DNA of 64,000 nt from SAR324 cluster bacterium (lineage in GTDB: Bacteria; SAR324; XYD2-FULL-50-16), in assembly GCA_028282885.1 (NCBI GenBank), contig JANQGX010000032.1:86439-150438 (forward strand), in the 5' to 3' direction. Shown here in pieces: positions 11,263 to 33,296 of this stretch. Below the pieces are notes generated by a model, which saw only the letters and a list, made by a program, of their open reading frames with translations, did not search any database and had not been told where the DNA came from. Made by a program: the position numbers and the translations under genes. Numbering within the stretch: the stretch's first letter is position 1; each line of letters begins with the position of its first letter.

Positions 11263-11850
11263 GTTTGCCCCCGAGATCCGATGCCTGATGAGAAGGCGAT
11301 CCTTAATGTTTAATTGGCACTGTTTGCTGCCAAGTATAAGAGAATAATTCGAGGTTGTCATCCGATACTAAAACCCATGGCAACAACTTTATTCCGGATA
11401 ACTTGGACTGCGAAAAATGATCAGTTCAAGAGATACGCTCATAAGGCACAACAGGACTGAAATCCATTTGAGTTGATAGCGAAAATCGGGGTATAATGGG
11501 TAGAAGTAAATCTGAAGAGAAGTTCTTTCGGACCCGGTCCGCTGAGCAACACTTGCTAAAACTCCATGGATATTGCCACGACATCTATTCTGCTGAATCT
11601 CAATGGCGGAACGGACTGAAGGTGGTATCAAACTTGCTGAAAGTGCCCTTTGTGATCAATATAGAAAAATCGGTAAGATGGGGTTGCGAGATAGCATTCG
11701 AGACAACTGGCCCGGATCAGACGTGTTGTTTAAAAAATTAACTCGATTCGATTGATGCGGAGGGAGTTGATCCATATTTGAAAACTCCGGATCGATTCTC
11801 TGGTGAGTTAATAAGTGTCTTCATTCAACCAATAAAGACAGGGGGTAACC

Positions 11851-13992
11851 GTGAACAAACAAAGGGTGCTGAGACTGGGAGTTGTTGTACTGATTATAGG
11901 ATTGATCGGATCCGTTTTCATTTTTGATCTGCAGCAGTATTTTACCCTGGAATATATCAAAAGCAGGCAACAGCTATTCGGCGACTACTACAGGGACAAC
12001 ACGGCATTCACAATCCTGGTGTTTTTGGGGGTTTATGTTATCTCTACTGCCATCTCCATCCCCGGGGCCGCTGTTCTAACCCTGATGGCCGGCGCTCTTT
12101 TTGGCCTCCTCTGGGGAACTGTCATCGTCTCCTTCGCCAGTTCCATCGGGGCAACCCTGGCGTTTATCACCTCCCGCTTTCTTTTGAGGGATTTTGTGCA
12201 AAAGAAGTTCGGGAGCCAGTTGGAAACCATTAACAAAGGGATTCGTAAGGAAGGGGAATACTATCTTTTTACCCTGCGATTGATACCGGTTTTTCCTTTT
12301 TTCCTGATTAATCTCTCTATGGGACTAACACCGATTGGACTGCTCAAGTACTATGTGGTTAGTCAGATCGGAATGCTCCCCGGCACCATTGTTTATGTTT
12401 TCGCCGGAACCCAGTTGGCGAAAGTCGAATCGCTCGGGGGGATTCTGTCACCCGGTCTGATTGCAGCTTTCACCCTTCTGGGACTATTTCCCCTTATCGC
12501 TAAAAAAGGAGTCGCCATGGCTAACTCGCGAAGAGCCCTGAAAAAGTACAAATCTCCCGGGAATTTTGATTATAACGTTGTGGTGATCGGAGCCGGATCC
12601 GGCGGTCTGGTTGCATCGTACATTTCGGCTGCCGTCAAGGCCAAAGTCGTTTTGATCGAGAAGCACAAGATGGGGGGTGATTGCCTGAATACCGGTTGTG
12701 TTCCCAGCAAAGCCCTGATTCGTTCCGCTAAAATGCTATCCTATGCGGAACGGGCAAAGGATTTCGGATTTGAAAAAACCAAGGTGGACTTCGACTTCAA
12801 GACAGTCATGGAGCGGGTAGCCGGGGTGATAAAGAAGGTCGAGCCCCATGATTCCGTTGAACGCTATCAGGATCTTGGCGTGGAGTGTATCACCGGTGAA
12901 GCCGAAATAATCGATCCATATCGTGTCAAGGTAAATGGCAATGTCATTACAACCAAAAACATCGTCGTGGCCAGCGGTGCCTCTCCGTTTGTTCCCCCAA
13001 TTCCGGGTATCGATCAGATGGATTACCTGACCAGTGACACGCTGTGGAACATCAGGGACCTCCCTAAACGTTTGATTATCCTGGGTGGCGGTCCGATCGG
13101 CAGTGAAATGGCTCAGACGTTTGCTCGACTGGGCTCGGAAGTTTCCCAGGTCGAGATGGCGCCTCAAATTCTGATCCGTGAGGATGAAGAGGTCAGTAAT
13201 CTGGTCGCGGAAAAGTTCAGAAAGGAAGGGGTCAAGGTCCTTACCGGGCACCGGGCCAAGGAGTTTCTAAAGGAAGACGGTGAGAAGATCCTGGTTTGTG
13301 AAGCCGAAGGAAAAGATGTCAGGATTCCTTTTGACCAGGTTATCGTAGCAGTCGGTCGCAGGGCGAATACCAAGGGATTCGGACTTGAGGAGCTGGGTGT
13401 TGAAATCGCCAAAAATGGAACCATCTCGCATGATGAGTATCTGAGGACGAATTACCCAAATATCTTCGTTTGTGGCGATGTGGCGGGACCTTATCAATTT
13501 ACCCATACAGCATCCCATCAGGCCTGGTATGCAGCCGTTAATGCTCTCTTTCGACCTTTCAGACAATTCAAGGTGGATTACCGCGTTATTCCCTGGTGTA
13601 CCTTCACTGATCCGGAAGTTGCGCGGGTCGGTTTGAATGAAAAGGAGGCCATGGAAAAGGATATCCCTTATGAAGCCACTGTCTACGGTATCGATGATCT
13701 GGACAGGGCTATCGCTGACAGCGAAGATCACGGATTCATAAAGGTTATAACCCCGCCGGGAAAAGACAAGATACTGGGCGTAACCATTGTTGGTACCCAT
13801 GCGGGCGACCTGATAGCAGAGTTTGTGTTGGCCATGAAGAATGGTCTGGGGCTGGGAAAGATTCTGGGAACCATCCATATCTACCCGACCCTGGGAGAAG
13901 CCAACAAGTATGCGGCTGGTAACTGGCGGAAGAATCACATACCGGAGAGACTGATGAGGTTTCTGGAGAAGTTCCATGCCTGGCGACGATAG
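11851..13992 (+). CDS. bifunctional DedA/TVP38-TMEM64 family membrane protein fused to FAD-dependent pyridine nucleotide-disulfide oxidoreductase
   Basis: 713 aa; N-terminal ~230 aa multi-TM with DedA-like region (...GAAVLTLMAGALFG...), C-terminal ~480 aa with FAD fold YNVVVIGAGSGGLVAS, redox-active disulfide GGDCLNTGCVPSK, NAD fold LIILGGGPIGSEMAQ and dimerisation domain. Confidence 0.8.
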   Translation: MNKQRVLRLGVVVLIIGLIGSVFIFDLQQYFTLEYIKSRQQLFGDYYRDNTAFTILVFLGVYVISTAISIPGAAVLTLMAGALFGLLWGTVIVSFASSIGATLAFITSRFLLRDFVQKKFGSQLETINKGIRKEGEYYLFTLRLIPVFPFFLINLSMGLTPIGLLKYYVVSQIGMLPGTIVYVFAGTQLAKVESLGGILSPGLIAAFTLLGLFPLIAKKGVAMANSRRALKKYKSPGNFDYNVVVIGAGSGGLVASYISAAVKAKVVLIEKHKMGGDCLNTGCVPSKALIRSAKMLSYAERAKDFGFEKTKVDFDFKTVMERVAGVIKKVEPHDSVERYQDLGVECITGEAEIIDPYRVKVNGNVITTKNIVVASGASPFVPPIPGIDQMDYLTSDTLWNIRDLPKRLIILGGGPIGSEMAQTFARLGSEVSQVEMAPQILIREDEEVSNLVAEKFRKEGVKVLTGHRAKEFLKEDGEKILVCEAEGKDVRIPFDQVIVAVGRRANTKGFGLEELGVEIAKNGTISHDEYLRTNYPNIFVCGDVAGPYQFTHTASHQAWYAAVNALFRPFRQFKVDYRVIPWCTFTDPEVARVGLNEKEAMEKDIPYEATVYGIDDLDRAIADSEDHGFIKVITPPGKDKILGVTIVGTHAGDLIAEFVLAMKNGLGLGKILGTIHIYPTLGEANKYAAGNWRKNHIPERLMRFLEKFHAWRR

Positions 13993-16861: not shown

Positions 16862-19207
16862 ATGAAGTCATCAAAGTCGAGTTTGGGATCGGTCTCCGAA
16901 TGGTGGCAAAACAGGATCATCCGTACAAAGATACTGATTGGAATATTTGTGGGTGTATTTCTATTTCAAACCATCAGCACAACCTATCAAATGCAGCAGG
17001 TTGAAAAAGATATACTGGACACCTACAAACAGAATGCTCTCAACCTTTCCGTATCGGTCGATTGCATTATGCTCAAGGATCCCATTCTCTTTTTCAACCT
17101 GCTGGACCGAATCGGCAGAACAGAAGTGGTGGGAATCAAAATTGATGATAACCACCCTTCCTGCGTCGAACGCGACTCCTACCTGAAACGGTTGAAGAGT
17201 GCCTTTCTGGCAGAATTTGAACAGAAAAACCAATCAGACAACCAATCCGAACCTGTTCCGGCTGTTGATGAAGACATCGAGGTGATCAATGAAGAACCAG
17301 TAGAATCAAACCTCCCGGCGGCCACGCTGCTCAGCGGCAACGCTATCGACCTGAATTTCGATCTGGCAAGAGTCGAAGGTCAATTGGAGACAACGGAGAT
17401 CTTCATCAACGGAGAACTGCAACCCCAACTGCTCTATACGGTTAAAGTAAACGGGGTTGAGCTGACCTTCGACCTGACCGATCTGCCGGAACAGAAATTG
17501 AACCGCTTCCTGTTTCTCTTTTTCACCGCCCTGGGAAACCTGCTGGTCCTTTTTATTATCATCTGGCTGCTTAGTGGACGCCTGGTCGATCCGTTGAAGA
17601 AACTAACCCTTTTTGCACAGCATATCATGACCTCCGGAGTCCTTGAATCCGGGGGCGATATCGGACAGGTCAAGATCGAAACCAGGGATGAGATAGGTAT
17701 CCTGGCCAGGGCGATCAACAATATGACGGCAAAAATCCAGCAAAGCTACCGCCAGATCATTAAAAGCAAGGCTGCCATTGGCGATCTGCTGAATAATACC
17801 GGCCAAGGATTTTTCAGCTTCGGACCGGATTACTTGATAGATGAGGAGTATTCCAAAGCCTGTGACCTCTATTTTAAATCTTCTATATCGGGCCTGAATG
17901 CCCTGGAACTGATGGTGCCTGAGAATCTGAAAGAGGTAAAAGAGCTAACCGATCTCCTGTTTGACGGTGTCGGGGATCTCTCCCTGCTGGAAGATCTGCT
18001 GCCACGGGAGATATCTCTTCACCGGAGAATCCTGTCTGTGGAATATCGATTCATTAAGGCTGCCGGAGAAGAGCTGAAGGATAAGATGATGGTCATTCTG
18101 ACCGACATCACCCAGGAGAGAGAGCTTGAACACCAATTACAGAAAGATGAAGCCCTCAACGAACTGGTCATCAAAATAGCCAGGGACAGGGATGGTTTTA
18201 TGCAATTCGTTCAGGACACCAACAAGCTTTTGGGTTCTATGTCAACCGATCTGAAAGATCCGTCAGTGACGATTGACCCGGTAGCGGTTATGCATGACCT
18301 GCACACTGTCAAGGGTATTTCAGCCAGCTACGGCCTGGGCACCGTTGCAGAAACAACCCATCGCATCGAGGACTGGATTCAGGAAACAGGACCCGATGAG
18401 GTCTTTTCCAGCGGGGAGAATATTAAATCACTGGAATCATCCCTGCTTGAGCTGCGGCGAAACCTGAAGGATTCATTGGAGAATGTAAGGGATATCATCA
18501 CCTGGGACGAGATTGTTGGCAGCAAGCAGCGGTATTACAAAGTCAATGAGGAAAAAGTGGTGAGGCTGGAGGCAATGTTCAGCGATACCAAAAAGGTTCG
18601 TCTGAATGAGATTCGACAGGCTCTCTATGAGTTCCGTAAAGAGCCAATTCTGCCGGTTTTCAGGAAGTACGCGGGAACAGCCGAGAAGCTGGCAGAAAAA
18701 CTGGGCAAGCAGATCAAAGTGGAACTGGCAGGCACCGACGTGGAAGTTTTTTACAAACGTCTTGAACCCCTGTTTGATGTATTGGTACATCTGGTGCGAA
18801 ACTCGGTAGATCATGGTTTGGAATCTACTGAAAAACGATTGAAAACGGGGAAACCGGAAACCGGGGTCCTGGAACTGTCGGCCGGCTATCAGGACAATGA
18901 TCTGATCCTTGCGATAGCCGATGACGGTGGCGGTATTGAAACAGCTAAGGTGGTTAAGGCAGCCCTGGAGCGAGGGCTGATAACCGCAGAAGAGGCAGAT
19001 CAACTGGGGCAGGATGATGCCATCAGGTTGTTATTCAAACCCGGATTTTCAACCAGCGAAAGTGTCTCGGATATTTCCGGGCGAGGTATAGGCATGGACG
19101 CTGTAAAGTCCAAGGTTGCGGAACTGGGTGGCTCCATCTCGGTAAAAACCCGGAAAGGCAGAGGCACCACCTTTAGAATCCGGATTCCCGATCACCCATC
19201 GTCATGA
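16862..19207 (+). CDS. membrane sensor kinase with HAMP, Hpt and CheA-type ATPase domains
   Basis: 781 aa: TM - ~170-aa periplasmic region - TM - HAMP; Hpt-like motif HTVKGISASYG; CheA-like N box HLVRNSVDHGLE, G1 DDGGGIE, G2 GRGIGMDAV; no CheW-like or receiver domain. Confidence 0.7.
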   Translation: MKSSKSSLGSVSEWWQNRIIRTKILIGIFVGVFLFQTISTTYQMQQVEKDILDTYKQNALNLSVSVDCIMLKDPILFFNLLDRIGRTEVVGIKIDDNHPSCVERDSYLKRLKSAFLAEFEQKNQSDNQSEPVPAVDEDIEVINEEPVESNLPAATLLSGNAIDLNFDLARVEGQLETTEIFINGELQPQLLYTVKVNGVELTFDLTDLPEQKLNRFLFLFFTALGNLLVLFIIIWLLSGRLVDPLKKLTLFAQHIMTSGVLESGGDIGQVKIETRDEIGILARAINNMTAKIQQSYRQIIKSKAAIGDLLNNTGQGFFSFGPDYLIDEEYSKACDLYFKSSISGLNALELMVPENLKEVKELTDLLFDGVGDLSLLEDLLPREISLHRRILSVEYRFIKAAGEELKDKMMVILTDITQERELEHQLQKDEALNELVIKIARDRDGFMQFVQDTNKLLGSMSTDLKDPSVTIDPVAVMHDLHTVKGISASYGLGTVAETTHRIEDWIQETGPDEVFSSGENIKSLESSLLELRRNLKDSLENVRDIITWDEIVGSKQRYYKVNEEKVVRLEAMFSDTKKVRLNEIRQALYEFRKEPILPVFRKYAGTAEKLAEKLGKQIKVELAGTDVEVFYKRLEPLFDVLVHLVRNSVDHGLESTEKRLKTGKPETGVLELSAGYQDNDLILAIADDGGGIETAKVVKAALERGLITAEEADQLGQDDAIRLLFKPGFSTSESVSDISGRGIGMDAVKSKVAELGGSISVKTRKGRGTTFRIRIPDHPSS

Positions 19208-19333
19208 GAAATCGATCTCTGTTGCAGGCTCCGATCCTGTCTCACGGTATTGAAGGAAAGATGTTTTGTGTTTGGGGGAACAGCAGTTATACTATTGAAT
19301 TGCACCATGGAATCGACAATCAATGGAGGAAAT

Positions 19334-19990
19334 ATGAGACACCTGTTTCAAATTATTGTTATGATACTCTTATTAGGCCCGGCCTTTTCCCCGGAGTCAA
19401 TCGGTGACACCACTGTTCCCGTGGGAACATTCTCCAAAGGAGATATAGAAGGATGGCAAAACAAGAGCTTTGAGGGTGAAACCGATTATCAACTGGTGAC
19501 TGTCGATAACCTCCAGGTTATCAAAGCTGAAAGCCGGCAGACATCTTCCGGCTTTTACAAGGAGATCGAAGTGGACCTGACCAAAACACCCTATCTGAAC
19601 TGGTCATGGCAGACGAATCGTATGCTTGAGGGAAACGATGAAAAAGCCAAATCCGGCGATGACTACGTAGCCAGGATCTATGTGGTGACCAAAACCGGTC
19701 CCTTTTTCTTTAGCCTCAAGGCATTGAACTATGTCTGGAGCTCACATAATCCGGAGGGGAGCGATTGGGCCAATGCTTTTACCTCCAAGGCGTGGATCGT
19801 GACGGTGCGATCCGGAACCGAAAAAACGGGTCAGTGGATTCATGAGAAGCGAGATGTGCGTAAGGATTTTGCCAGGTATTTCGGAACTGATGTGGACTCC
19901 ATAAACGCCGTAGCTATCATGACTGATACGGATAATAGCGGACAAGAGGCAACAGCCCTTTATGGTGATATCTATTTTACTGCCGAGTAA
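19334..19990 (+). CDS. exported hypothetical protein
   Basis: Start placed at ATG 19334 (GGAGGA RBS) giving signal peptide MRHLFQIIVMILLLGPAFS; ~218 aa; possible DUF3047-like, not certain. Confidence 0.5.
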   Translation: MRHLFQIIVMILLLGPAFSPESIGDTTVPVGTFSKGDIEGWQNKSFEGETDYQLVTVDNLQVIKAESRQTSSGFYKEIEVDLTKTPYLNWSWQTNRMLEGNDEKAKSGDDYVARIYVVTKTGPFFFSLKALNYVWSSHNPEGSDWANAFTSKAWIVTVRSGTEKTGQWIHEKRDVRKDFARYFGTDVDSINAVAIMTDTDNSGQEATALYGDIYFTAE

Positions 19991-20296
19991 TTTATTTGGC
20001 ACACTTCTTTCAGAAGGATTGTCATGGTTTGACTCAACCTGATCGAATCAATTCCCTCAGGTTTTACCGGAGAGAAGAGCTTTCTCCGACTCAGGAATGA
20101 GTGCAACGATAACATTCGATTTTCGGATAATTTGACAGCGTCGTCCGATCAAGGTAGATTTCAGTTAATCATCTGAATTCCGGGTTAGCAGTAACCGGTT
20201 GAATATTGAAGCTCCGAATGTTTTACCTTTTGGGCGAGGGGACAGGAAGGGGTGCGAAGCAATCTGCTTATCAATCTATAATTCTATATTTTTGCT

Positions 20297-21139
20297 ATGA
20301 AATGGAATAGTATAATAAACAAAGTGGAGACCATCTCCATTGAGGATGCCAAGGCATATTTCAATTCTCACGGCTCCGACGAATACCAACTGGTAGATGT
20401 CCGGCAGCCCGAGGAATACAGCAAACGTCATCTTCCCGGTTCCCTTTTGATCCCTTTGGAAGAATTAATAGAAGGAAAGGGAGGCCTGGACAAGGAAAAA
20501 GCGGTTTTTGTTTACAGCGGAGGCAACAACCGCAGTCTGGCGGCCGGTCAGTGGCTTAATAGTCAGGGCTTTCGGGAGGTACGGTACCTGGAGGGTGGAA
20601 TCTCTTCCTGGTACGGAGAGCTGGCCTTTGGTCATTTCGAACTGAATCTGAATCTCCTGGATCCGAACGTGGAATATGAAGATGCCATCAGCATGGCCTA
20701 CGCCATGGAAGAGGGTCTGCAACAGTTTTACATCATGCTTGCCCGGGAAACGGAAGATGAAGCGTTTAAGAGGCTGTATCGTAAACTGGCTTCATTTGAG
20801 GTGGATCATAAACGCGACCTTTCCAGGATCTATTCCATCTCCCAGGGTAAAGAGATGGTTCAGAAGGAATTTGCCGAACATGACGGCCAGATTCTCGAAG
20901 GGGGCGGCTATGCCGATATCACCTTGATTAAGACCCTGGCTAACACCGAAAGCGCCCGGGACGTGTTTGGCCTTGCTGCCGCGTTTGAAACCCAGGCCAT
21001 GGATTTTTATACAAGGCTGGCGGTGAAAGCGGAAAAACCGGAGGTAAAAAAATTCTTTCTTGAGATGGCCGATGCCGAGAAAAAGCATCTGGCTTTTGTG
21101 GCCAGTGAACTGGACCAATATTTGAAAAAAAATAATTAA
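20297..21139 (+). CDS. rhodanese-domain / rubrerythrin-like (ferritin-like diiron) fusion protein
   Basis: N-terminal rhodanese fold (...VDVRQPEEY..., active-site loop VYSGGNNRS with Ser where the catalytic Cys is expected); C-terminal four-helix domain with two E...ExxH motifs (FEVDH; AEKKH). Confidence 0.7.
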   Translation: MKWNSIINKVETISIEDAKAYFNSHGSDEYQLVDVRQPEEYSKRHLPGSLLIPLEELIEGKGGLDKEKAVFVYSGGNNRSLAAGQWLNSQGFREVRYLEGGISSWYGELAFGHFELNLNLLDPNVEYEDAISMAYAMEEGLQQFYIMLARETEDEAFKRLYRKLASFEVDHKRDLSRIYSISQGKEMVQKEFAEHDGQILEGGGYADITLIKTLANTESARDVFGLAAAFETQAMDFYTRLAVKAEKPEVKKFFLEMADAEKKHLAFVASELDQYLKKNN

Positions 21140-21162
21140 ACAGTCTAAAAAAATCAAACACT

Positions 21163-21813
21163 ATGGATTCAAGCAAGATACTGGATAAGCTCAATGTCAG
21201 GGATGGTATCGTCAATAATCGTCAACATCCCAGCCTCAATCTGCAAGCCAGGGAAGCGGGATTTGAGATCTACAATTTCCTCAGTCAGGATGGGAAACCT
21301 TACTCACTCGGAGATGACGCGGATTACCTGAAACTTTTCATGCAGATGGCTGAAAGCATCTATCTTAACAATGGGACATTCCTTGGAACGTGCCTTGTCG
21401 CTTCCGATATGGGTGGCAGCCGTCTTTTTGTCAAGGAGTTTACCGATCAGGAAAAAGAGGAGTTCAAATATGCGCATGTATGCCTGCTTAGCACCATGAA
21501 AAGGCTTTCTGATGAAAACAGGCCGGAAACCTTCAGCTTTTTCGGAGAGCTGAACCTGGTGGATTCCAAAGAAGAGAAATTCGAAAGAGAATCCAGAAAG
21601 ACCGCCAGGGTTCTCTCCGGAGAGGAACGGGAAAACTGGCTGGAGATCATTGACAAGCGATATCAATTTCTCAAAACCGATGTGTATGTCTATTCGCTGT
21701 TAAAGCTCTTCTCCTGGGGATTTCAGGTCATCGAATCGGAAGGTAATGTCCGGGAAGAGCAGAACCTTGTCAGACCCAACCGACCCAAACCCAGGGGGGC
21801 GAGTCGAAAATAG
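21163..21813 (+). CDS. hypothetical protein
   Basis: 216-aa ORF 24 nt downstream of previous gene, no recognisable motifs. Confidence 0.45.
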   Translation: MDSSKILDKLNVRDGIVNNRQHPSLNLQAREAGFEIYNFLSQDGKPYSLGDDADYLKLFMQMAESIYLNNGTFLGTCLVASDMGGSRLFVKEFTDQEKEEFKYAHVCLLSTMKRLSDENRPETFSFFGELNLVDSKEEKFERESRKTARVLSGEERENWLEIIDKRYQFLKTDVYVYSLLKLFSWGFQVIESEGNVREEQNLVRPNRPKPRGASRK

Positions 21814-21914
21814 AAGCAAACCATTTGTTACTACTGTTCCGAACCAGCCTGGCCGGGAAGCCTGGCCCTGCTGCAATGAAGAGCAGTCAACCCTTAACCC
21901 GAAAAGGAGAAACC

Positions 21915-22424
21915 ATGGATCTCGGAGAAGCTATCAAAACAGCAATTGCGCTGGAAGACAAGATCGTTAACGTCTACACCAAGTACGCAGATAAGTTCAG
22001 CTCACCCGTTGCCAGCAAGATTTTCAAACTGCTGGGCGAAGAGGAAGAAGGCCATACCGCCTATTTAAAGGCGAAACTTGAGCAGTGGCAAAACTCGGGA
22101 AAGATTACCGTTGATGACATCAAAACCATTGTTCCCGACAAAGAGGTGATCAAGGAAAATGTTAAAAAACACAAAGCCGCGGCAAAACAGGCCAACATTG
22201 ATGACGAAATTGAAGTCTTCAAAAAGGCGTTGGAGATGGAAAGCCAAGCTTCGGCTTTTTACAAGGATCTTGTAGGTAAGCTGGCACCTGAAGACCAGGT
22301 TTTGTTCAAACGTTTTATCGAAATTGAAGAGGGACACGAAGCCATTGTCAAAGCCGAAATCGACAATGCACGAGGTTTCGGATTCTGGTTCGATTTTCAG
22401 GAATTTGATCTGGAAAGTGCATAG
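21915..22424 (+). CDS. rubrerythrin/ferritin-like diiron-carboxylate protein (paralog 1)
   Basis: Start at ATG 21915 (AAAAGGAGA RBS); two-repeat E...ExxH architecture (EEEGH; EEGHEAIV); paralogous to 26162..26677 and 28408..28884. Confidence 0.65.
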   Translation: MDLGEAIKTAIALEDKIVNVYTKYADKFSSPVASKIFKLLGEEEEGHTAYLKAKLEQWQNSGKITVDDIKTIVPDKEVIKENVKKHKAAAKQANIDDEIEVFKKALEMESQASAFYKDLVGKLAPEDQVLFKRFIEIEEGHEAIVKAEIDNARGFGFWFDFQEFDLESA

Positions 22425-22522
22425 AAAAAGCTACTTTGACAGAGAATCTGATTGCCAACCGGGCAATGAGCCCGGTTGGATTGAAATGGAAGATTTGAGA
22501 CAATTTAAAACAGGAAAATCTG

Positions 22523-23035
22523 ATGCTTACAGAAAAAATGGAAGCCAAGCTGAACGAGCATATTAATGCCGAACTCTATTCAGCTTATCTGTATCTATCC
22601 ATGTCGGCTTATTTCAAGTCGATTGATCTGCCCGGTTTTGTCAACTGGATGCAAGTACAATTCGAAGAAGAAATGTCCCATGCGATGAAATTCTTTGAGT
22701 TTGTTGATAATATGAACGGTAGAATTCGCCTGGCGACTATCCAGGCGCCGCCTGTGGAATGGGAGTCTCCCGTTGAAGTCTTTCAGGAGACCTATGATCA
22801 TGAGCGTTCGGTCTCCGAACAGATCTTTAAGCTGGTGAGCCTGTCGCTGGAAGAAAATGACCATGCCACCAATAACTTCCTGCAATGGTTTGTTGCAGAG
22901 CAGGTCGAAGAGGAATCATCGGTGAAATCAATCCTCAGTAAGCTGAAATTTATCGGGGATTCCAAGTCAGGACTCTTCATGGTGGACCAGGAGCTGGCCA
23001 AACGGACCGTCTCAACGGACACGGCACCTGTGTAA
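22523..23035 (+). CDS. ftnA: non-heme ferritin
   Basis: 170 aa with classic Ftn ferroxidase-centre residues (...NAELYSAYLYLSMSAY...EEEMSHAMKFFEF...QETYDHE...). Confidence 0.85.
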   Translation: MLTEKMEAKLNEHINAELYSAYLYLSMSAYFKSIDLPGFVNWMQVQFEEEMSHAMKFFEFVDNMNGRIRLATIQAPPVEWESPVEVFQETYDHERSVSEQIFKLVSLSLEENDHATNNFLQWFVAEQVEEESSVKSILSKLKFIGDSKSGLFMVDQELAKRTVSTDTAPV

Positions 23036-23133
23036 CCGAAACCCGGTAAATTGATATCAATTGTAACCGGGCGGGCCCGTGCTATCGGGCCCGTATGCTT
23101 TCCCGGAACTATCCAACCTTTTGACAATCAAAC

Positions 23134-23490
23134 ATGAAAAAAGCAACCATCTATCACAATCCCAAGTGAAGCACCAGTAGAAAAGCACTGGCAGTGCTTG
23201 AAGAGAGTGGTGTGGAATTCCGAATCGTTGAATACCTGAAAAACCCACCTTCGGTGGCTGAATTGAAAAAAATAGCCAAAGGGATCGGAGTCGATCCTGT
23301 TGAATTGCTTCGACCAAAAGACAAACGCTTTAAAGAACTGGGATTGTCCAAGAAAGATGACAGGAGCCAGGATGATTGGTTACGCCTGATGAACAAAAAT
23401 CCCAGTATCATTGAACGTCCCATCGTGGCATATGCAGGTAAATATGCCATGGGAAGACCGCCGGAAAGCATTTGGGAAATTCTGAACTGA
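23134..23490 (+). CDS. arsC: ArsC-family arsenate reductase/thiol-disulfide protein with in-frame TGA (putative selenocysteine) at the catalytic-Cys position
   Basis: ATG 23134...MKKATIYHNPK-TGA(23167-23169)-STSRKALAVLEESGVEFRIVEYLKNPPS... matches E. coli ArsC TIYHNPACGTSRNTLEMI...YLENPPS...; TGA aligns with Cys12; same frame as ORF-track 23194..23490; 7-bp stem-loop 23183..23199 lies 13 nt after TGA (SECIS-like). Confidence 0.65.
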
Positions 23491-23547
23491 TGCGAAGAGA
23501 AACCTCATGCGACAGGCATATTAATCCCAACCCGAACAAGGAAAACA

Positions 23548-25239
23548 ATGGATATTGATATTTCAATAAAAATTGGCGGTGAAGCCGGGCAGGGTATCCA
23601 GACTGTGGGTGACCTCCTGGCCAATGTCTGCCGTGAAGCAGGGCTCTATATCACTGGCATCAATGATTTCGAGTCCAGAATCAGGGGCGGACACAGTTAT
23701 TTTCAGATCAGAATATGCAATACGTCGGTTTCAGCTCCGGAAACCACTGCCCACATGGTGGTTGCGCTGAATGAACAGACCTATGAGTTGCATCACCAGG
23801 ATATTCATGAGGGTGGGCTTGTTATAATGGATGCCCGTGAAGCCCCGGCTGAAAACGTGATTGCGGTTCCCATCAGGGAGTTGGCAGTGGAAGCCGGGGG
23901 CAGGGTGATGGCCAACACGGTTGCTGTCGGTGCTGTGCTCGGTTTGCTGGGTGCCCCTTTTCACATCCTGGAAGGCTTGCTGACCAGACGCTTTTCCAGA
24001 AAAAGCCAACAGATCGTGGATAACAATATTGCAGCTGCCAAACTGGGTTTTGAGGCCGTCAAAGATACTTCTTTCAAATGGTCCTTCGACTGGAACAGGG
24101 GAGAACCCAAGGGAACCCTTATCAACGGTTCTAAAGCGGTAGCTCTCGGGGCTCTGGCTGCAGATTGTCGATTCGCCGCATTTTACCCCATGTCTCCGGC
24201 TACCTCCGTCATGCAGGATCTGAACTCCTTTTCCGGTAAAATTCCCATGATAGTGGAACAGGTGGAGGATGAGATCGCCGCAGTCAACGCCATCATTGGG
24301 GCTTCATATGCCGGGATTCGATCAATGACCTCCACGTCGGGCGGCGGATTTTCCCTGATGGTGGAAGGACTCGGTCTGGCCGGGATTACGGAAACTCCTA
24401 TTGTTGTCGTCGATGCCCAACGACCCGGACCTGCTACCGGATTGCCGACCCGTACCGCCCAACCCGACCTGCTTTTTGCCATCAGGGCGTCCCAGGACGA
24501 ATTCCCCAGGTTTGTGCTGGCCCCGGGATCGCCGGGAGAGGCCTATACCATTACCACCAGGGCGTTCGAACTGGCCGACAAGTACCAGGTGCCGGTTATC
24601 ATCCTGGTTGACCAGTATCTCTGCGACTCTCTCTTTATCGAAGAGAACCCATTTAAAATTCCCACCGAGATTAATCGTTATACCGTCACCGACGAGGATA
24701 TGGCTGACCCGAGACAATATGTCCGTTATGCCCTGACCGAAGACGGCGTCTCTCCAAGAGCCCTGCCATGCAATGGTGAAGCCCTGGTGATGGCCTCCGG
24801 GAATGAGCATACGGAAGACGGCCATATCAGTGAAGATCCTGCCAACCGGGTTGCCATGATGGATAAACGCGCCGCTAAAATCCCGAGGATGATTGATGAA
24901 CTGGATCCGCCCGAAACTTATCATGGTGAAAGCGAATTGCTGGTTGTGGGATGGGGATCCACCAGGGGCGCTATCAGAGAAGCGGTAGAGATCCTGAGAA
25001 ACGGGGGAATGGATATCGGCTGCCTGCATTTCACGGACATCTGGCCGTTTCCCACAGATGTTGTGACGGCCGCACTTGAAAAAGCCGAACGGTTTGTCAT
25101 GGTGGAGCAAAACTCATCGGCCCAGTTTGGACAGTTGATCAGGGAACAAACCGGTCTGTCTTACTCCGCATCAATCCTCAAATATGACGGCAGGCCTTTC
25201 TATACTGATGAGGTTGTTGAGAAAATCAAACAGATATAA
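23548..25239 (+). CDS. 2-oxoacid:ferredoxin oxidoreductase, fused gamma/alpha subunit
   Basis: 563 aa; N-terminal gamma-like domain (MDIDISIKIGGEAGQGIQTVGDLLA...) followed by alpha (KorA-like) domains. Confidence 0.8.
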   Translation: MDIDISIKIGGEAGQGIQTVGDLLANVCREAGLYITGINDFESRIRGGHSYFQIRICNTSVSAPETTAHMVVALNEQTYELHHQDIHEGGLVIMDAREAPAENVIAVPIRELAVEAGGRVMANTVAVGAVLGLLGAPFHILEGLLTRRFSRKSQQIVDNNIAAAKLGFEAVKDTSFKWSFDWNRGEPKGTLINGSKAVALGALAADCRFAAFYPMSPATSVMQDLNSFSGKIPMIVEQVEDEIAAVNAIIGASYAGIRSMTSTSGGGFSLMVEGLGLAGITETPIVVVDAQRPGPATGLPTRTAQPDLLFAIRASQDEFPRFVLAPGSPGEAYTITTRAFELADKYQVPVIILVDQYLCDSLFIEENPFKIPTEINRYTVTDEDMADPRQYVRYALTEDGVSPRALPCNGEALVMASGNEHTEDGHISEDPANRVAMMDKRAAKIPRMIDELDPPETYHGESELLVVGWGSTRGAIREAVEILRNGGMDIGCLHFTDIWPFPTDVVTAALEKAERFVMVEQNSSAQFGQLIREQTGLSYSASILKYDGRPFYTDEVVEKIKQI

Positions 25240-25250
25240 GGAGCAGGATC

Positions 25251-26105
25251 ATGGTGAAAATCGAAGATTATCATAATGACTACGAAAACAAATGGTGCCC
25301 GGGTTGCGGAAACTTCGGCCTTTTGGATGCCATGAAAGATGCACTGGTCAACCTGGATATTGCTCCCCGTGATATTCTCCTCATTTCCGGAATCGGTCAG
25401 GCTGCCAAAACGCCCCATTTCATGAATTGTAATTTCTTTCACACCCTACACGGCCGGGCATTGCCGATTGCAACCGGTGCCAAGCTGGCCAATCATGACC
25501 TGAAAATTCTGGTTAATTCGGGGGATGGAGATTGCTATGGTGAGGGGGGGAATCATTTTATCAATGCCATTCGTCGCAATCTGGATATCACCCTTTTGGT
25601 TCATCACAACAAGGTTTATGGTTTGACCAAAGGCCAAGCAGCTCCGACATCGGATATGGGATTTGTCACCCCGCAACAACCCGATGGCGTCAGAACTGAT
25701 CCGTTGAATCCAGTCAAACTAGCACTCAGTCTGGGAGCGAGTTTTGTGGCAAGGGGATTTTCCAACAACCGGAAGCACCTGAGCCGGTTGATACAGGATG
25801 CCATCCAGTACAGGGGATTCTCCCTGGTGGACATACTTCAGCCCTGTGTCACCTATAACAAGATCAATTCCCACGCCTGGTTCAAGAAGCGGGCTTATGA
25901 TCTGTATGAAACGGATTACCAACCCGATAAACTGGACGAGGCACTCTTTCTGGCCGAGGAGTGGGAAGATAAAATCCCAATTGGTATTCTTTATCGTAAG
26001 GATTCAATTCCCTTTCATGAAAGAATAGGCCAGCTCAAAGAGGGAACATTGATATCTCGTCCTTATGATGCGGCGACGATTCAGGAAATTCTCTCCGCGG
26101 TCTGA
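25251..26105 (+). CDS. 2-oxoacid:ferredoxin oxidoreductase beta subunit (TPP-binding)
   Basis: 284 aa, CPGCG N-terminal motif and TPP-binding GDGDCYGEGGNHFINAIRRN; 12 nt downstream of alpha gene. Confidence 0.8.
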   Translation: MVKIEDYHNDYENKWCPGCGNFGLLDAMKDALVNLDIAPRDILLISGIGQAAKTPHFMNCNFFHTLHGRALPIATGAKLANHDLKILVNSGDGDCYGEGGNHFINAIRRNLDITLLVHHNKVYGLTKGQAAPTSDMGFVTPQQPDGVRTDPLNPVKLALSLGASFVARGFSNNRKHLSRLIQDAIQYRGFSLVDILQPCVTYNKINSHAWFKKRAYDLYETDYQPDKLDEALFLAEEWEDKIPIGILYRKDSIPFHERIGQLKEGTLISRPYDAATIQEILSAV

Positions 26106-26161
26106 GAAAAGGTGTTAAGAACTGCAGTGGCGATAGCGCTGCTGCAGTTTTAAAGGAACTG

Positions 26162-26677
26162 CTAACCATCCAGCAGGGATTTTTCGGAACTCATCATCCA
26201 GCCTTCCGGATCTTCAAAGTAGAGCAGGGTGTTTTCCAGCGACGCCACGTGTTTGTGTTCAACGGCAGCCATATATTCGAAAAACTTTTTCTCATCCGGA
26301 TCTTCGGTTTTTTTGATCAGATCCTTGTAAAAGAGATGGGCTTTGGTTTCGAAATCGATGGCAATCTGCACTGCTTCCCTGTCATCGGTCGTTGATTTGG
26401 CGGCTCCCTCGGCGGATGCAATCATCTCTTTCAATCCTTCCTTGATATCGGTTTCATCCACAACAGGTGATATCTCCTCCGGCCATTCCCCCCTCTCTTC
26501 AAGGTTTTTGTGAATCTTCAGCAACTGCTCATAGTGCATGTCCTCTTCTTTGGCGATGGTTTCGAACATTTTTTTTCCAACCGGATTGGTCACCTTCTTG
26601 CTCAATGTGGTATAGTAATCCTTCTCTTCTTTTTCATTGTTTAATGCTACCTCGATAGCTTTTAAACTTGGCTTCAT
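26162..26677 (-). CDS. rubrerythrin/ferritin-like diiron-carboxylate protein (paralog 2)
   Basis: 171 aa; two E...ExxH repeats (EEDMH; EHKH); paralog of 21915..22424 and 28408..28884. Confidence 0.65.
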   Translation of the reverse strand: MKPSLKAIEVALNNEKEEKDYYTTLSKKVTNPVGKKMFETIAKEEDMHYEQLLKIHKNLEERGEWPEEISPVVDETDIKEGLKEMIASAEGAAKSTTDDREAVQIAIDFETKAHLFYKDLIKKTEDPDEKKFFEYMAAVEHKHVASLENTLLYFEDPEGWMMSSEKSLLDG

Positions 26678-26989
26678 GGGTTTCTCCTTCTTCCGGTGTT
26701 GATGATAATCAAGTACCTATCCGGCCCTGTATACCCCGCAACCGTTCCAAATAGGTACCATAATGCGTTGTCAAACCTCAATCAGGATGTATCAGTGCTA
26801 CATCCCTCCGTTTTCGGTCTCGGACCTTCGCAACTCTGTTCAGATTTTTATATTTTTCCCACAAGGCGGGATGGATATAAAAAAATTCTGCAAAGCCTGT
26901 GCCCGCTTTTTTCCCGATTTCATGGGATTTTCCCTCCCGAGGGCCTCAATCCGCCATGAGAAAGAGGGATAAAGCGTATTGTACAACTA

Positions 26990-27002
26990 TGTATCATAAA
27001 AA
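26990..27002. promoter_or_regulatory. TGTATCATAAAAA motif copy 1 (Fur/PerR-like hexamer array) in divergent promoter region
   Basis: 13-nt motif repeated exactly at 27227..27239; surrounding sequence carries nATwAT-type hexamers typical of Fur-family boxes. Confidence 0.3.
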
Positions 27003-27226
27003 CCTATGAGACATAAGCATTATTTAAAAGATCAATAATTCTAAAAATGTACACTCGAAACTGAACATTAATCTGTCCTATGGCTGCAGGATTCGGAGCT
27101 GTGTGACATTTTTTATTTTGAAAAGTTTGGACATTTGCCATGGAATCCTGTATAAAGACTATATAAATCAAATGATTAAAAAAATGGCACGCATCCTGAA
27201 ACATAGAGATCAAAAATTATCATCAT

Positions 27227-27239
27227 TGTATCATAAAAA
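27227..27239. promoter_or_regulatory. TGTATCATAAAAA motif copy 2 (context TTATCATCATTGTATCATAA)
   Basis: Exact repeat of 26990..27002; 34 nt upstream of the small ORF/rubrerythrin gene pair. Confidence 0.3.
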
Positions 27240-27272
27240 TCAGTCAAAACCAATTTTCCAGAGGCTAGATAA

Positions 27273-27485
27273 GTGGAGTTAAGGAGATGCGACCAGAACA
27301 TTATTGAGACACTCAAACTGGTCGAAAAGATGTTAAAGCTGGCGCAGCAGGGTGATGCTGAAAGGGAGGATGTTGCCTGTGGAGTGTTGTACGGGGTTAT
27401 GCTCGATTCCGCTTTTAAGATTAAAAAGCTGGCGGAACAGGAGAGAGACTCGCATATCAAAAAAGGCTGGTGGAAAAAAGCCTGA
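27273..27485 (+). CDS. small hypothetical protein (70 aa, GTG start)
   Basis: ORF directly upstream of rubrerythrin; helical, no motif; start uncertain. Confidence 0.3.
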   Translation: MELRRCDQNIIETLKLVEKMLKLAQQGDAEREDVACGVLYGVMLDSAFKIKKLAEQERDSHIKKGWWKKA

Positions 27486-27540
27486 AGTTTTCCATGCTCT
27501 CATAATTCTATGAGATTTTTTATTCAACCCAAAATCAGGA

Positions 27541-28098
27541 GTGTTTATGAAAAAATGGGTATGTTCAGTATGTGGTTATGTTCATGATGGTGATAACCCG
27601 CCGGAGGAGTGTCCGCAATGTAAGGCCAGCTCGGATAAGTTTTACGAGCAACAGGCAGGTGATCTCGCATGGGCAGATGAACACAGGATTGGTGTGGCAG
27701 CGAAGGATATTGATCCTGAGGTTCTGGATGGATTAAGGGCGAATTTTACGGGTGAATGCACGGAAGTTGGGATGTACCTTGCCATGAGCCGTCAGGCGGA
27801 TCGGGAAGGGTATCCGGAGGTTGCAGAAGCCTACAAGCGTATAGCCTGGGAGGAGGCTGAGCACGCATCCAAGTTTGCGGAGTTATTGGGCGAAGTGGTT
27901 GTAGCCGACACCAAAGCCAATCTCAAGGCAAGAGTTGAAGCTGAGCACGGTGCCTGCAAAGGCAAAAAGGATTTGGCAACCAAAGCCAAGCAGCTCAACT
28001 ATGATGCCATCCACGACACCGTTCACGAAATGTGCAAAGACGAAGCCCGACATGGTGCTGCCTTTGCCGGATTGCTCAAGCGATACTTCGGTGAATAG
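27541..28098 (+). CDS. rbr: reverse rubrerythrin (N-terminal rubredoxin-like domain + diiron ferritin-like domain)
   Basis: N-terminal CSVCGY...CPQCKA FeCys4 knuckles followed by rubrerythrin diiron domain ([16 protein letters not shown]...EEAEHASKF...; [12 protein letters not shown]...CKDEARHG). Confidence 0.85.
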
Positions 28099-28407
28099 GG
28101 TCGGATTCAATCGATCATTTGTTTAGATTCTAATTCCACCATACCATGATTTAACCGGGAAGCGGGTTGAAATTCATAACAGTTTGTCTTGTTAAAAGGA
28201 AATCATGTCTGGTATGAATACCTTTAAGACAAAACGTTAAGATGTTGATCTCCCCTTGCTCGAACATGCGGAACTCTTCCGATATGATGCGGGGGCGAAG
28301 ACAACAAATTGAGTCCCGTGATCGATGAGGGGTAATGGCTTTAAGAAGCGAAAAAGCGATTATCCCTCCCGCTGATCGATCATGCCAAACATTAATGGAG
28401 AATTGTG

Positions 28408-28884
28408 ATGTATCATAAGTTTAATGCCAAGGCTATTTTGGAAATGGCTGAAAACATTGAAAAAAACGGATATGCCTTTTATCGAAAGGCAGCAGATGAT
28501 GTTAAAGACCCTGAAATCAAAACTTTTTTGCTGGAACTGGCCGAAATGGAAGTCGGGCACGAGAAGTTATTTACCTCCATGAAATCAAAACTTTCGGACA
28601 AAGAGAGTGAAGATATCGTTTTCGATCCCTATGATGAAGCTGCTCTTTATATTGAGGCCCTGGCCGACACCAGGGTGTTCTATGAAAAGACCATCGATAC
28701 CTCGTCAGCGGAAGAGGTTTTCAAAGCAGCTATTGAAGCAGAGAAAGAATCCATCGTATTTTACCTGGGGATGAAAGAACTGGTTCCCGATGAGGCCGGG
28801 AAAGATAAAATTCAAGAAATCATCAAAGAAGAGATGAAGCACATTCAGACCATCAGCAAAAAGCTGCTGGCTATTAAAAGATAA
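28408..28884 (+). CDS. rubrerythrin/ferritin-like diiron-carboxylate protein (paralog 3)
   Basis: Start at ATG 28408 (GGAG RBS 7 nt upstream); two E...ExxH repeats (EMEVGHE; EEMKH). Confidence 0.65.
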   Translation: MYHKFNAKAILEMAENIEKNGYAFYRKAADDVKDPEIKTFLLELAEMEVGHEKLFTSMKSKLSDKESEDIVFDPYDEAALYIEALADTRVFYEKTIDTSSAEEVFKAAIEAEKESIVFYLGMKELVPDEAGKDKIQEIIKEEMKHIQTISKKLLAIKR

Positions 28885-29021
28885 CATTCGTCCGGGTGTT
28901 TTGGCTTTCACCCGCTACCAAAAATCGCTGACAGTGTCCTGTTCACCCTCCTGTTTGCCGGAAGACACCGGCAACCGGATTTTTATCATAAACCCAAACA
29001 CACTTAACAACGGAGAAGAAA

Positions 29022-29183
29022 ATGGCAAAATACAGATGTGAAACCTGCGACTACATTTACGATCCTGCCGAAGGTGATCCCGATTCCGGAATCGATCCCG
29101 GCACTTCGTTTGAGGACCTGCCGGATGATTGGGAATGTCCCGTTTGCGGCGTCGGCAAGGAAGACTTTGTCAAAGAGGGATAG
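29022..29183 (+). CDS. rd: rubredoxin (53 aa; absent from ORF track)
   Basis: [53 protein letters not shown]; canonical CxxC...CPxCG; GGAGAAGAAA RBS; 5 nt upstream of flavodiiron gene. Confidence 0.85.
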
Positions 29184-29188
29184 GAGAT

Positions 29189-30373
29189 ATGCACACGGAA
29201 ACAATTAAGGAAGGGATATACTGGGTAGGCGCTATCGATTGGGATGTAAGGAACTTTCACGGTTACCTGACCCAGCAGGGAACCAGCTATAACGCTTACC
29301 TGATTATAGATGAGAAGATCACCCTGGTGGATACCGTAAAGCCGGATAAATTCGGACAGATGATCGACCGAATCAGTCGCTACGTTGACCCCTCCAGGAT
29401 AGACTATGTCCTCTCCAATCATGTGGAAATGGATCATTCGGGAGGTATTCCCGAACTGATGGAATTGATTCCACAGGCAACCGTTATCACCTCTAAAGCC
29501 GGTGAAAAAGGGCTACGCCAACACTATAAAAAAGAGTGGAACTTTCGGGTCGTGAAATCCGGTGACAGCATCGACATTGGAAAACGAACTCTCAGTTTTG
29601 TTAATACGCCGATGGTGCACTGGCCGGACTCCATGGTGACCTATATTCCTGAGGAGAAGATACTTTTCTCCAATGATGCCTTCGGGCAGCATCTGGCAAC
29701 TTCCGAACGGTTTGATGACGAGCTTGGCTGGAGCGCCGTCAGAAAAGATGCCGCCAAATACTACGCCAACATCGTTTTGCCGTTTGGTAAACAGGTACAA
29801 AAAGCTCTTTCCGCCCTCTCTTCCATGGAAATCGAATTGATAGCACCAAGCCATGGCCTGATGTGGAAATCTCACATTCAGAAGATTATGGCGGAATATC
29901 AGAAATGGTCTAACCACGAAGCTCCCAATAGAGCCCTGATCGTTTATGACTCGATGTGGCAATCAACAGAGAAAATAGCAACCGCACTGGAAAAAGGCCT
30001 GTCCGAATCCGGAATCTACACAACCTTGCGTAATTTAAAGGTTAATCATATTTCGAACATTATGCCGGATGTGATGGAATCGAAACTGGTTCTGCTGGGA
30101 TCTCCTACTTTGAATAACAGTATACTGCCTACCATGGGTCAGTTTTTAACCTACCTCAGGGGACTCAAACCGCAGAACAAGATCGGATTTGCCTTTGGTT
30201 CCTACGGTTGGGGCGGTCAAGCTGTCAAAGAGCTGGTCCAAACCATCGAGGATTTAAACTGGGAAAATCCCCTGGAGGGAGTCAATATTGAATATATTCC
30301 CGATACCGAGGAACTGTCTGCAACGGTGGATATCGGAAAAAGCCTTGCAGAAATTTTGATGAAGTCAAATTGA
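29189..30373 (+). CDS. roo: flavodiiron protein (rubredoxin:oxygen oxidoreductase / FprA-type)
   Basis: Start re-assigned to ATG 29189 (GGGATAGGAG RBS) rather than 29129, which overlaps rubredoxin; metallo-beta-lactamase-like diiron motif HVEMDHSGG; C-terminal flavodoxin-like domain (ALIVYDSMWQSTEKIA). Confidence 0.85.
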   Translation: MHTETIKEGIYWVGAIDWDVRNFHGYLTQQGTSYNAYLIIDEKITLVDTVKPDKFGQMIDRISRYVDPSRIDYVLSNHVEMDHSGGIPELMELIPQATVITSKAGEKGLRQHYKKEWNFRVVKSGDSIDIGKRTLSFVNTPMVHWPDSMVTYIPEEKILFSNDAFGQHLATSERFDDELGWSAVRKDAAKYYANIVLPFGKQVQKALSALSSMEIELIAPSHGLMWKSHIQKIMAEYQKWSNHEAPNRALIVYDSMWQSTEKIATALEKGLSESGIYTTLRNLKVNHISNIMPDVMESKLVLLGSPTLNNSILPTMGQFLTYLRGLKPQNKIGFAFGSYGWGGQAVKELVQTIEDLNWENPLEGVNIEYIPDTEELSATVDIGKSLAEILMKSN

Positions 30374-30621
30374 TGTGGTAGTCTTAATCAGAATCAGTCC
30401 GTTCCTCAATGGAAAGATTAATTCCTGATCCGAAAGCGCTCCGAATCATCACTTTTTGGAGGGGCTTATGTTTTTCGATAAGGTATCATAGGGGCTGATC
30501 AACTCTGGTGTTAAAACTCCCGACATTCGGTTACGTCGGGAGATTGACAAATTTATCGGTGGTCGGTTTCAAACTGCAGACCCCGTTCCAACAGCATATA
30601 ACTGCAAAAGGAGGTAAACCT

Positions 30622-31944: not shown

Positions 31945-31995
31945 GTAAAAAATTGTGAACTTGACTAAAAATAACATACAAAAGGGAGGGACATC

Positions 31996-32982: not shown

Positions 32983-33296
32983 AAGTTTGCTCCCCCGGAC
33001 CATTTTTTGCAGGTAAAACTCGGGGGATGCGAAACGGGTGCAAGTATCGCCAACAGAAAAAACCGACCAGGCGGTGGAGTTCAACGGCATCTCTCATCTT
33101 CCACGATATAGAATCAGGAGTTTCCCGGGCATCAAGTTCCCTGGTCAGTTCTGCCAAAGTAGTAGATGATCAATGAAAACGGCAAAACGAACCCGCCGAG
33201 GCTCCATCATTTCAATAATCGGGAGAAATCCCCGGTTAAGGTTGTATTGCAGAACCTTGCGAATAAAACTGAACCGGTATAGTTTTTAAACCCATC

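Follow-up and report, generated by a model that had tools for sequence, protein, structure and literature searches.

In the described persulfide dioxygenase (PDO)–rhodanese systems, the rhodanese is either a separate protein encoded in sqr-pdo operons (PMC9163753) or it is joined to the dioxygenase, as in BpPRF (5ve4), S. aureus CstB and Blh. The gene analyzed here lies at positions 20297 to 21139 of a 64,000-nucleotide stretch of DNA from a SAR324 cluster bacterium (contig JANQGX010000032.1; the whole stretch is called the window in what follows), and in its product the rhodanese domain is joined instead to a predicted diiron four-helix bundle. A further difference from PRF, CstB and Blh is that the Cys is replaced by Ser. 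The cluster lacks a dioxygenase gene, and tblastn showed no PDO homolog anywhere in the 64-kb window. Since the protein has no Lactamase_B match in Pfam, it is not a fusion of the PRF/CstB/Blh type. On balance, and with some reserve, we favor the reading of a cysteine-free diiron protein that acts in oxidative stress or iron handling and has a rhodanese module no longer capable of sulfur transfer.

Both halves of the protein have relatives among known systems. With the rubrerythrin/erythrin peroxidases (PF02915; D. vulgaris rubrerythrin 1lkm; the N-terminal erythrin domain of MbfA) it shares the E, ExxH, E, ExxH bundle and the paired Tyr at ligand +7, and its gene stands in one island with true rubrerythrins, a rubredoxin and a flavodiiron protein. 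Unlike rubrerythrin, however, it has no rubredoxin domain, no Cys and no seventh Glu ligand, position 234 being Ala (in the family, Ala in 163 members and Ser in 39) where rubrerythrin has Glu97, and the rubrerythrins in the PDB match it only marginally (E ~1e-3). The closest solved relatives of the diiron domain are the COG1633-type proteins PF1190 of P. furiosus (2fzf) and TM1526 of T. maritima (1vjx), at E ~1e-13; these and the Magnetospirillum protein 2oh3 are stand-alone proteins of ~150-175 aa without a rhodanese domain. Rhodanese domains that are naturally devoid of the catalytic Cys (Anabaena Alr3790, 3hix/3ilm; the inactive N-terminal domain of bovine rhodanese; the docking domains of MAP-kinase phosphatases) have the same fold with this residue replaced, and such domains reportedly play a regulatory role. 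Alr3790 was among the best PDB matches of the window protein (E=9e-11). Whereas the Cys-less domains usually drop the whole loop signature, the window protein keeps Arg79 and Ser80, and in its family there is only an alternation between Cys and Ser at position 74 within one orthologous group, unlike in the known Cys-less domains. The Anabaena protein 3fse, a DJ-1/ThiJ/PfpI domain with a ferritin-like domain, is uncharacterized, has a different N-terminal fold and aligns only through its ferritin-like part. Finally, the rhodanese-related selenoproteins of NF041203 resemble two loci of the family (L033 and L034, see below), which have TGA at the catalytic codon; the window protein itself is not a member, as it scores 21.7 bits against a cut-off of 115 and has Ser, not selenocysteine (Sec).

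The gene and the residues on which the argument depends are located in the window as follows.

20297..21139 (+): rhodanese/ferritin-like diiron fusion gene, Ser74 variant; complete open reading frame with ATG start, 280 aa
20324..20626 (+): rhodanese homology domain, ~aa 10-110
20510..20536 (+): active-site loop VYSGGNNRS, aa 72-80, with the short sulfurtransferase spacing (C/S-X4-R)
20516-20518 (+): Ser74 codon AGC, aligned to the family Cys column
20669..21133 (+): ferritin-like (erythrin/COG1633-type) four-helix diiron domain, aa 125-279
20708-20710 (+): E138, predicted diiron ligand
20798-20800 (+): E168, predicted diiron ligand in the FEVDH motif
20807-20809 (+): H171, predicted diiron ligand in the FEVDH motif
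20987-20989 (+): E231, predicted diiron ligand
21077-21079 (+): E261, predicted diiron ligand in the AEKKH motif
21086-21088 (+): H264, predicted diiron ligand in the AEKKH motif

The encoded protein (P0001) is identical across three independent assemblies of one sample series, and its N-terminal residues MKW agree with the family consensus. A preliminary description, made from the DNA letters, had proposed a rhodanese domain fused to a rubrerythrin-like one, and the Pfam search bore this out, giving PF00581 (Rhodanese, aa 27-107, E=5.1e-18, 65.8 bits against a cut-off of 22.2) and PF02915 (Rubrerythrin, E=2.8e-13, 50.9 bits against 22.8). The N-terminal part has the alpha/beta rhodanese fold with conserved CH2A (DVR..E) and CH2B motifs, as expected for PF00581. 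The AlphaFold2 (AF2) model has a mean predicted local distance difference test score (pLDDT) of 86 and a predicted template modeling score (pTM) of 0.83, with long helices at 127-151, 155-183, 220-244 and 248-279. Full-length homologs numbered 83, with 83-31% identity across 95-100% of the length and a conserved inter-domain linker, AFGHxELNLNL.

The architecture is not rare. A word-indexed search gave 84 proteins of ~280 aa, all full length or close to it, and both Pfam domains are recorded for 80. When 1.84 billion representatives were searched with a profile, 678 representative clusters matched at E<=1e-30; among the 150 best matches, single-stretch full-length proteins of 260-295 aa predominated. 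The family alignment used below comprises 213 full-length members. With one genome taken per species, the family was found in SAR324, Desulfobulbaceae (including Desulfurivibrio alkaliphilus and Desulfocapsa), Desulfobacteraceae, Desulfatiglandaceae, Syntrophobacteraceae, Acidobacteriota and unclassified metagenome-assembled genomes (MAGs), and two or three fusion paralogs per genome are frequent. One such paralog, P0071, which is taken to belong to the same genome as the window protein, is of the Cys type (loop VYCRSGGRS) and 43% identical to it. That this is not a characterized family, as also stated earlier, agrees with the searches: the window protein scores above the cut-off of no NCBIfam model, no PDB structure combines both domains, and no paper on the fusion came up in full-text literature searches that paired rhodanese with terms for the diiron domain, with persulfide dioxygenase or with SAR324. 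In PMC8346489, PMC13047784 and PMC9163753, read with this question in mind, there is no description of it, and the fusion in a cable-bacteria paper was rejected as a precedent, being a different architecture (rhodanese-PDO). Members are named in databases only as 'sulfurtransferase', 'rhodanese-like domain-containing protein' or 'hypothetical'. The rhodanese/diiron architecture is thus common yet uncharacterized, a sizeable family made from two textbook folds and previously known only through generic annotations.

The loss of the sulfur-transfer nucleophile is seen directly at position 74. In alignments, Ser74 takes the place of the catalytic Cys in P. aeruginosa thiosulfate sulfurtransferase (1yt8) and stands in the Cys column of the family, in keeping with the replacement described earlier, so that the nucleophilic Cys required at loop position one of an active sulfurtransferase is missing; the GlpE model gives 38.6 bits against a cut-off of 102. 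The window protein contains no cysteine at all. Residue 74 is Cys in 179 of the 213 members (84%) and Ser in the other 34, with no third state, and 26 of the 34 Ser members are equally Cys-free, with no compensating Cys column among the Ser-type proteins. The name 'sulfurtransferase' is almost certainly wrong for the window protein. The remainder of the loop is conserved to a varying degree. Arg79, from the cationic loop that cradles the anion, is invariant in all members, the Ser forms included, and Ser80 is 96% conserved. Gly77, 95% conserved family-wide, has been lost from the nearest relatives of the window protein, where the loops are degenerate (SGGNNRS, SNSVSRS, SNSASRA and SRKLARS).

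Every Ser codon at position 74 is AGY, one transversion away from TGY, and codon family was therefore uninformative as a test for independent Ser origins. Selenocysteine was ruled out for the window protein by its AGC codon. Two further loci have TGA exactly at codon 74, L033 (8001-8828), an Acidobacteriota MAG, and L034 (8001-8822), from Desulfobacteraceae SURF_67, both distant members of the family. In both, the reading frame is kept past the TGA through the normal C-terminus, and a shared hairpin, GCAGC-CGGGUU/A-GCUGC, starts 17 nt 3' of the TGA. As judged from these signals, they are probably selenocysteine forms of the fusion family, which protein databases would truncate. Residues at which Sec and Cys replace each other usually act as redox or nucleophilic catalysts, and since position 74 is of this kind, the fusion family is taken to be ancestrally catalytic. 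The earlier label of a non-catalytic module thus does not hold as a family trait, given Cys in 84% of members and TGA in two loci; for the window protein it is supported, though not proven, by the absence of Cys there and in most Ser members and by the lower conservation of the rhodanese domain described next.

A midpoint-rooted neighbor-joining (NJ) tree, unbootstrapped, places Cys at the root of position 74 and all Ser forms inside one 55-leaf subclade that holds the window protein. Outside this subclade, the rhodanese domain is the more conserved of the two, with a mean pairwise identity of 0.45 against 0.31 for the ferritin-like domain. Inside it the order flips, to 0.48 for rhodanese and 0.60 for ferritin-like in Ser-Ser pairs. 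At matched ferritin-domain identity (0.70-0.85), rhodanese identity was 0.58 in Ser-Ser pairs and 0.67 in Cys-Cys pairs. Because of this reversed conservation and the loss of Gly77, the rhodanese module is called degenerate in the subclade. The residues specific to the subclade are mainly changes in the aromatic core of the ferritin-like domain, none of them at ligands, and give no mechanistic hint. The window protein is a derived variant, not a guide to the mechanism of the whole family.

The predicted diiron site, by contrast with the loop, is complete in the subclade and beyond. The FEVDH and AEKKH motifs, previously pointed out as E...ExxH repeats, contribute E168/H171 and E261/H264, and E138 and E231 complete them to the full six-ligand E/ExxH/E/ExxH set, each residue at least 98% conserved in the family and placed on the four long helices of the AF2 model. 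Second-shell residues are Y145 and Y238, the Tyr at ligand +7 in helices A and C, together with an invariant D236; a conserved E201-G-G loop falls within the only low-confidence stretch of the model. As in the comparison above, the rubrerythrin-like label of the preliminary description fits the ligand set and fails for rubrerythrin proper: Pfam gave no RUBY_RBDX match, which with the lack of Cys leaves the protein without a rubredoxin-like Fe(Cys)4 domain, and the NCBIfam rubrerythrin model NF045767 gave 13.3 bits against a cut-off of 200. The ferritin profile PF00210 also gave 13.3 bits, under its cut-off of 24.5, so that by profile the protein is not an iron-storage ferritin. Going by its sequence, the C-terminal half is best described as an erythrin/COG1633-type diiron domain, and its predicted site would bind metal.

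Gene context separates the Cys-type members from the subclade of the window protein. Altogether 45 loci (designated by L numbers) were examined, nine of them for the subclade. In 13 distinct Cys-type loci, an ETHE1-type PDO of 231-260 aa adjoins the fusion gene, ten times immediately upstream on the same strand and three times (L017, L040 and L044) divergently transcribed, and one further locus has a rhodanese-PDO fusion downstream of the fusion gene. For the adjacent dioxygenase, the matches were E=3e-80 to M. xanthus PDO 4ysb and 1e-67 to human ETHE1 4chl. Such loci also hold desulfoferrodoxin, rubrerythrin, a flavin reductase-rubredoxin fusion or a flavodiiron protein, and these PDO-linked O2-defense islands occur in SAR324 and Desulfobacterota. 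A hybrid-cluster protein is encoded in three loci, two of which have a nitroreductase as well. No PDO is found in any of the nine subclade loci, nor upstream of the paralog P0071, where the 401 nt to the contig end are non-coding. Taken together, these contexts suggest that the family has an accessory part in the response of anaerobes to persulfide and O2 stress. In five Desulfobulbaceae loci (L020, L021, L023, L026 and L028, including Desulfurivibrio alkaliphilus), the gene directly upstream of the Cys-type fusion gene is not a PDO but an FA_hydroxylase-family (PF04116) membrane gene.

The window gene itself is preceded by a gap of 306 nt and is the first of a cluster of peroxide, O2 and iron genes, so the earlier statement that it heads an oxidative-stress cluster was correct. 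The other members are listed here.

21163..21813 (+): hyp216, 216 aa, a conserved partner gene starting 23 nt past the fusion stop codon
21825..22424 (+): stand-alone erythrin/COG1633-like diiron protein (PF02915, E=3.7e-10); gene caller start ~21915, 169 aa
22523..23035 (+): non-haem ferritin (PF00210, E=6.5e-44), conserved in L004-L006 and L011
23134..23490 (+): ArsC/Spx-family gene (TIGR00014, E=1e-23) with an in-frame TGA at 23167-23169
~29022-29183: small rubredoxin gene, position inferred from the offset in L001
21825-22424, 26162-26677 (-), 27541-28098, 28405-28884, 29129-30373, 30508-32982: genes of the O2/peroxide-defense island

After the ArsC-like gene, the order is 2-oxoacid:ferredoxin oxidoreductase (OFOR) alpha and beta, a minus-strand erythrin-like gene, reverse rubrerythrin, a further erythrin-like gene, rubredoxin, flavodiiron protein and cytochrome bd oxidase. 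In all, three stand-alone erythrin-like proteins are encoded in this dense island, together with a rubredoxin, a flavodiiron protein, a cytochrome bd oxidase and a reverse rubrerythrin, whose rubredoxin domain comes first. The beginning of this gene order is kept in L004-L011, where the fusion protein is 49-70% identical to that of the window; the cluster conserved in the subclade comprises hyp216, the erythrin-like protein, ferritin, the ArsC-like protein and OFOR. The erythrin-like gene at 21825..22424 recurs in L004-L007, L010 and L011, and a stand-alone protein resembling its product comes after Cys-type members in L013, L039 and L045.

The conserved partner hyp216 is directly 3' of the fusion orthologue in L004, L006, L007, L008 and L009. 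Only 13 homologs were found among 5.8 billion proteins, on contigs that also bear a homolog of the fusion protein. It has no Pfam or NCBIfam match and no fold match (best Foldseek E=0.045, not meaningful), and its AF2 model has a pLDDT of 63.5 with the C-terminal 70 residues unmodeled. Its C-terminal third is highly conserved (FLKTDxY...LKLxSWGFQ...VRPxxPKPRGASR), yet unstructured in AlphaFold. One candidate homolog, P0245 from an ENA contig of 1334 bp, was rejected as an almost certain assembly chimera: its first 34 residues are identical to hyp216 and lead into the C-terminal domain of a glycine dehydrogenase.

From these data, the course of events under the favored reading can be outlined. 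In the ancestral form, a Cys or Sec rhodanese would have served as a redox or sulfur-carrying nucleophile beside an ETHE1-type dioxygenase in the O2-defense islands of anaerobes. In the window subclade, the PDO partner would then have gone and hyp216 been gained, with position 74 switching between Cys and Ser and constraint moving from the rhodanese to the diiron domain. The intact diiron centre would be the active part, an erythrin/rubrerythrin-like reductant of peroxide or O2 or, alternatively, a ferroxidase supplying the neighboring ferritin. The Ser74 rhodanese would no longer be able to form a persulfide and is probably retained for structure, for anion binding or for docking, the docked partner possibly being hyp216 or an electron donor.

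Several points weigh against this outline. The solved ferritin-like relatives 2fzf, 1vjx and 2oh3 have no known function and, since they are functionally uncharacterized, 'peroxidase' and 'ferroxidase' are analogies here; metal content and activity are sequence-based predictions for every member of the family. The count of at least seven Cys/Ser changes, obtained by parsimony, depends on the unbootstrapped NJ tree. In addition, the Cys-type members in L006 and L007 have the same hyp216 context, and a thiol may therefore still be important in some subclade members. Lastly, residue 74 is confined to Cys, Ser and Sec, with Ala, Gly or Asp in no member, and because of this restriction and the invariance of Arg79, the loop must still be under selection. 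A ligand-binding or even catalytic role for Ser74 is possible.

That last point leads to the strongest alternative, which we hold to be appreciably less probable. According to it, the Ser74 rhodanese is a working substrate site, in which the Arg79 cradle binds thiosulfate, sulfite, persulfide or a selenium species and presents it to the diiron centre or gates that centre. In that case the fusion would be a sensor-enzyme, or an oxidase acting on a small anion of sulfur or selenium. The preliminary description expressed much the same idea, namely that the protein may deliver or sense a sulfur or oxidant ligand, and for the window protein this is speculation. The restriction of residue 74 to Cys, Ser or Sec with Arg79 present in every Ser form speaks for it, and the modeled pTM of 0.83 with the conserved linker suggests a fixed inter-domain arrangement. 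The family is moreover tied to sulfur metabolism through PDO, and two loci have a TIGR03169-like, SelD-associated oxidoreductase as neighbor, although its 240 bits are below the 310-bit cut-off. However, in the nearest relatives the loop lacks Gly77 and is freely variable at positions 75-78, the rhodanese domain is the less constrained one in the window subclade, and neither the conserved cluster nor the 64-kb window contains a sulfur-metabolism gene or a PDO.

A bolder proposal, which we rate lower still, concerns the whole family. The persulfide or perselenide formed on the Cys or Sec of the rhodanese would be the electron or sulfur substrate of the diiron centre, and the family would represent an unrecognized class of anaerobe enzyme, a peroxide/O2 reductase dependent on sulfane sulfur or else a persulfide oxygenase of the diiron type, which would work alongside the ETHE1-type PDO when sulfidic cells are exposed to O2. 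The Ser74 subclade would be a neofunctionalized offshoot that receives electrons or substrate by way of hyp216. If the diiron centre does act on, or is reduced by, a rhodanese-bound persulfide, this would be a new step in the joint handling of sulfide and oxygen stress by anaerobes. The family is experimentally tractable, with a natural Sec/Cys/Ser series, tight PDO linkage in SAR324 and Desulfobacterota, and a setting in O2-defense islands; the Ser subclade provides a natural 'dead-nucleophile' control and an example of a domain repurposed once its catalytic residue was lost.

Two further explanations are less likely. An iron–sulfur (Fe-S) assembly or repair device, with the rhodanese giving sulfane sulfur and the ferritin-like domain giving iron, is improbable. 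In its Ser variant, the protein would be an iron-only donor that, with ferritin, protects the adjacent Fe-S enzyme OFOR. The fusion of a sulfur-carrier domain to an iron-binding one would fit such a device, as would the conservation of ferritin and the O2-sensitive OFOR in the same cluster. However, no isc, suf or nif genes were found in any of the 45 loci, the dominant neighbor, PDO, destroys sulfane sulfur rather than donating it, and the ligand set is that of a catalytic-type diiron site with no sign of a storage cage. A frataxin gene does lie ~3.5 kb from the fusion gene, but in a single Cys-type locus and on the opposite strand. Finally, it is very improbable that the Ser74 gene is a decaying, functionless paralog, for although its loop is degenerate and the Cys-type P0071 is taken to share its contig, the reading frame is intact, Ser-type sequences number 34, at 49-83% identity, no diiron ligand has been lost, the ferritin-like domain is more conserved in the subclade than elsewhere, and synteny is kept across several MAG lineages.

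The ArsC/Spx-family gene of the cluster presents a selenocysteine case of its own. It runs longer than the listed open reading frame, from the ATG at 23134, and its TGA aligns with the catalytic Cys12 of ArsC (YHNPK*STSRK), with a stable hairpin downstream (z=-3.1). The TGA is conserved in L004, L005, L006 and L010. Taken as read, these features indicate that the gene probably encodes a selenocysteine ArsC-like protein.

Two promoter-like elements were noted within the gap of 306 nt that precedes the fusion gene.

19996..20014 (+): sigma-54-like element TTGGCAC-N5-TTTCAGA (TTGGCACACTTCTTTCAGA), ~283 nt upstream of the fusion gene
20132..20160 (+): sigma-70-like match TTGACA-17-TAGATT, from a consensus scan, 10/12 positions

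The sigma-54-like element is the one match in the window, against 0.03 expected, and near-identical elements lie upstream of the orthologues in L004, L005 and L007. Its -12 box is TTTCA where the consensus is TTGCA, and no enhancer-binding protein was identified for it. Sigma-70-like sites are no more numerous in the region than expected from shuffling. No Rfam family reached its gathering score within 19000-33000.

Three minor observations concern genes farther from this argument. A pyridine-nucleotide-disulfide oxidoreductase adjoins the fusion gene in two Desulfobulbales-type loci (L036, 6494-7636; L024, 5061-6386); this is the neighbor resembling TIGR03169 ('N-terminal to SelD') mentioned above, and its score makes it a weak selenium hint. 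The window contains a homolog of the FA_hydroxylase-family gene, 36-38% identical, at 10471-11361 (-), ~9 kb upstream of the fusion gene, with which a functional link is not established. At 11851-13992 (+), a 713-aa fusion joins a VTT/DedA-type membrane domain to a full pyridine-nucleotide-disulfide oxidoreductase with its dimerization domain; L005 has a gene 79% identical to it, and in L042 its two parts are split into adjacent genes, near a Cys-type member of the family.

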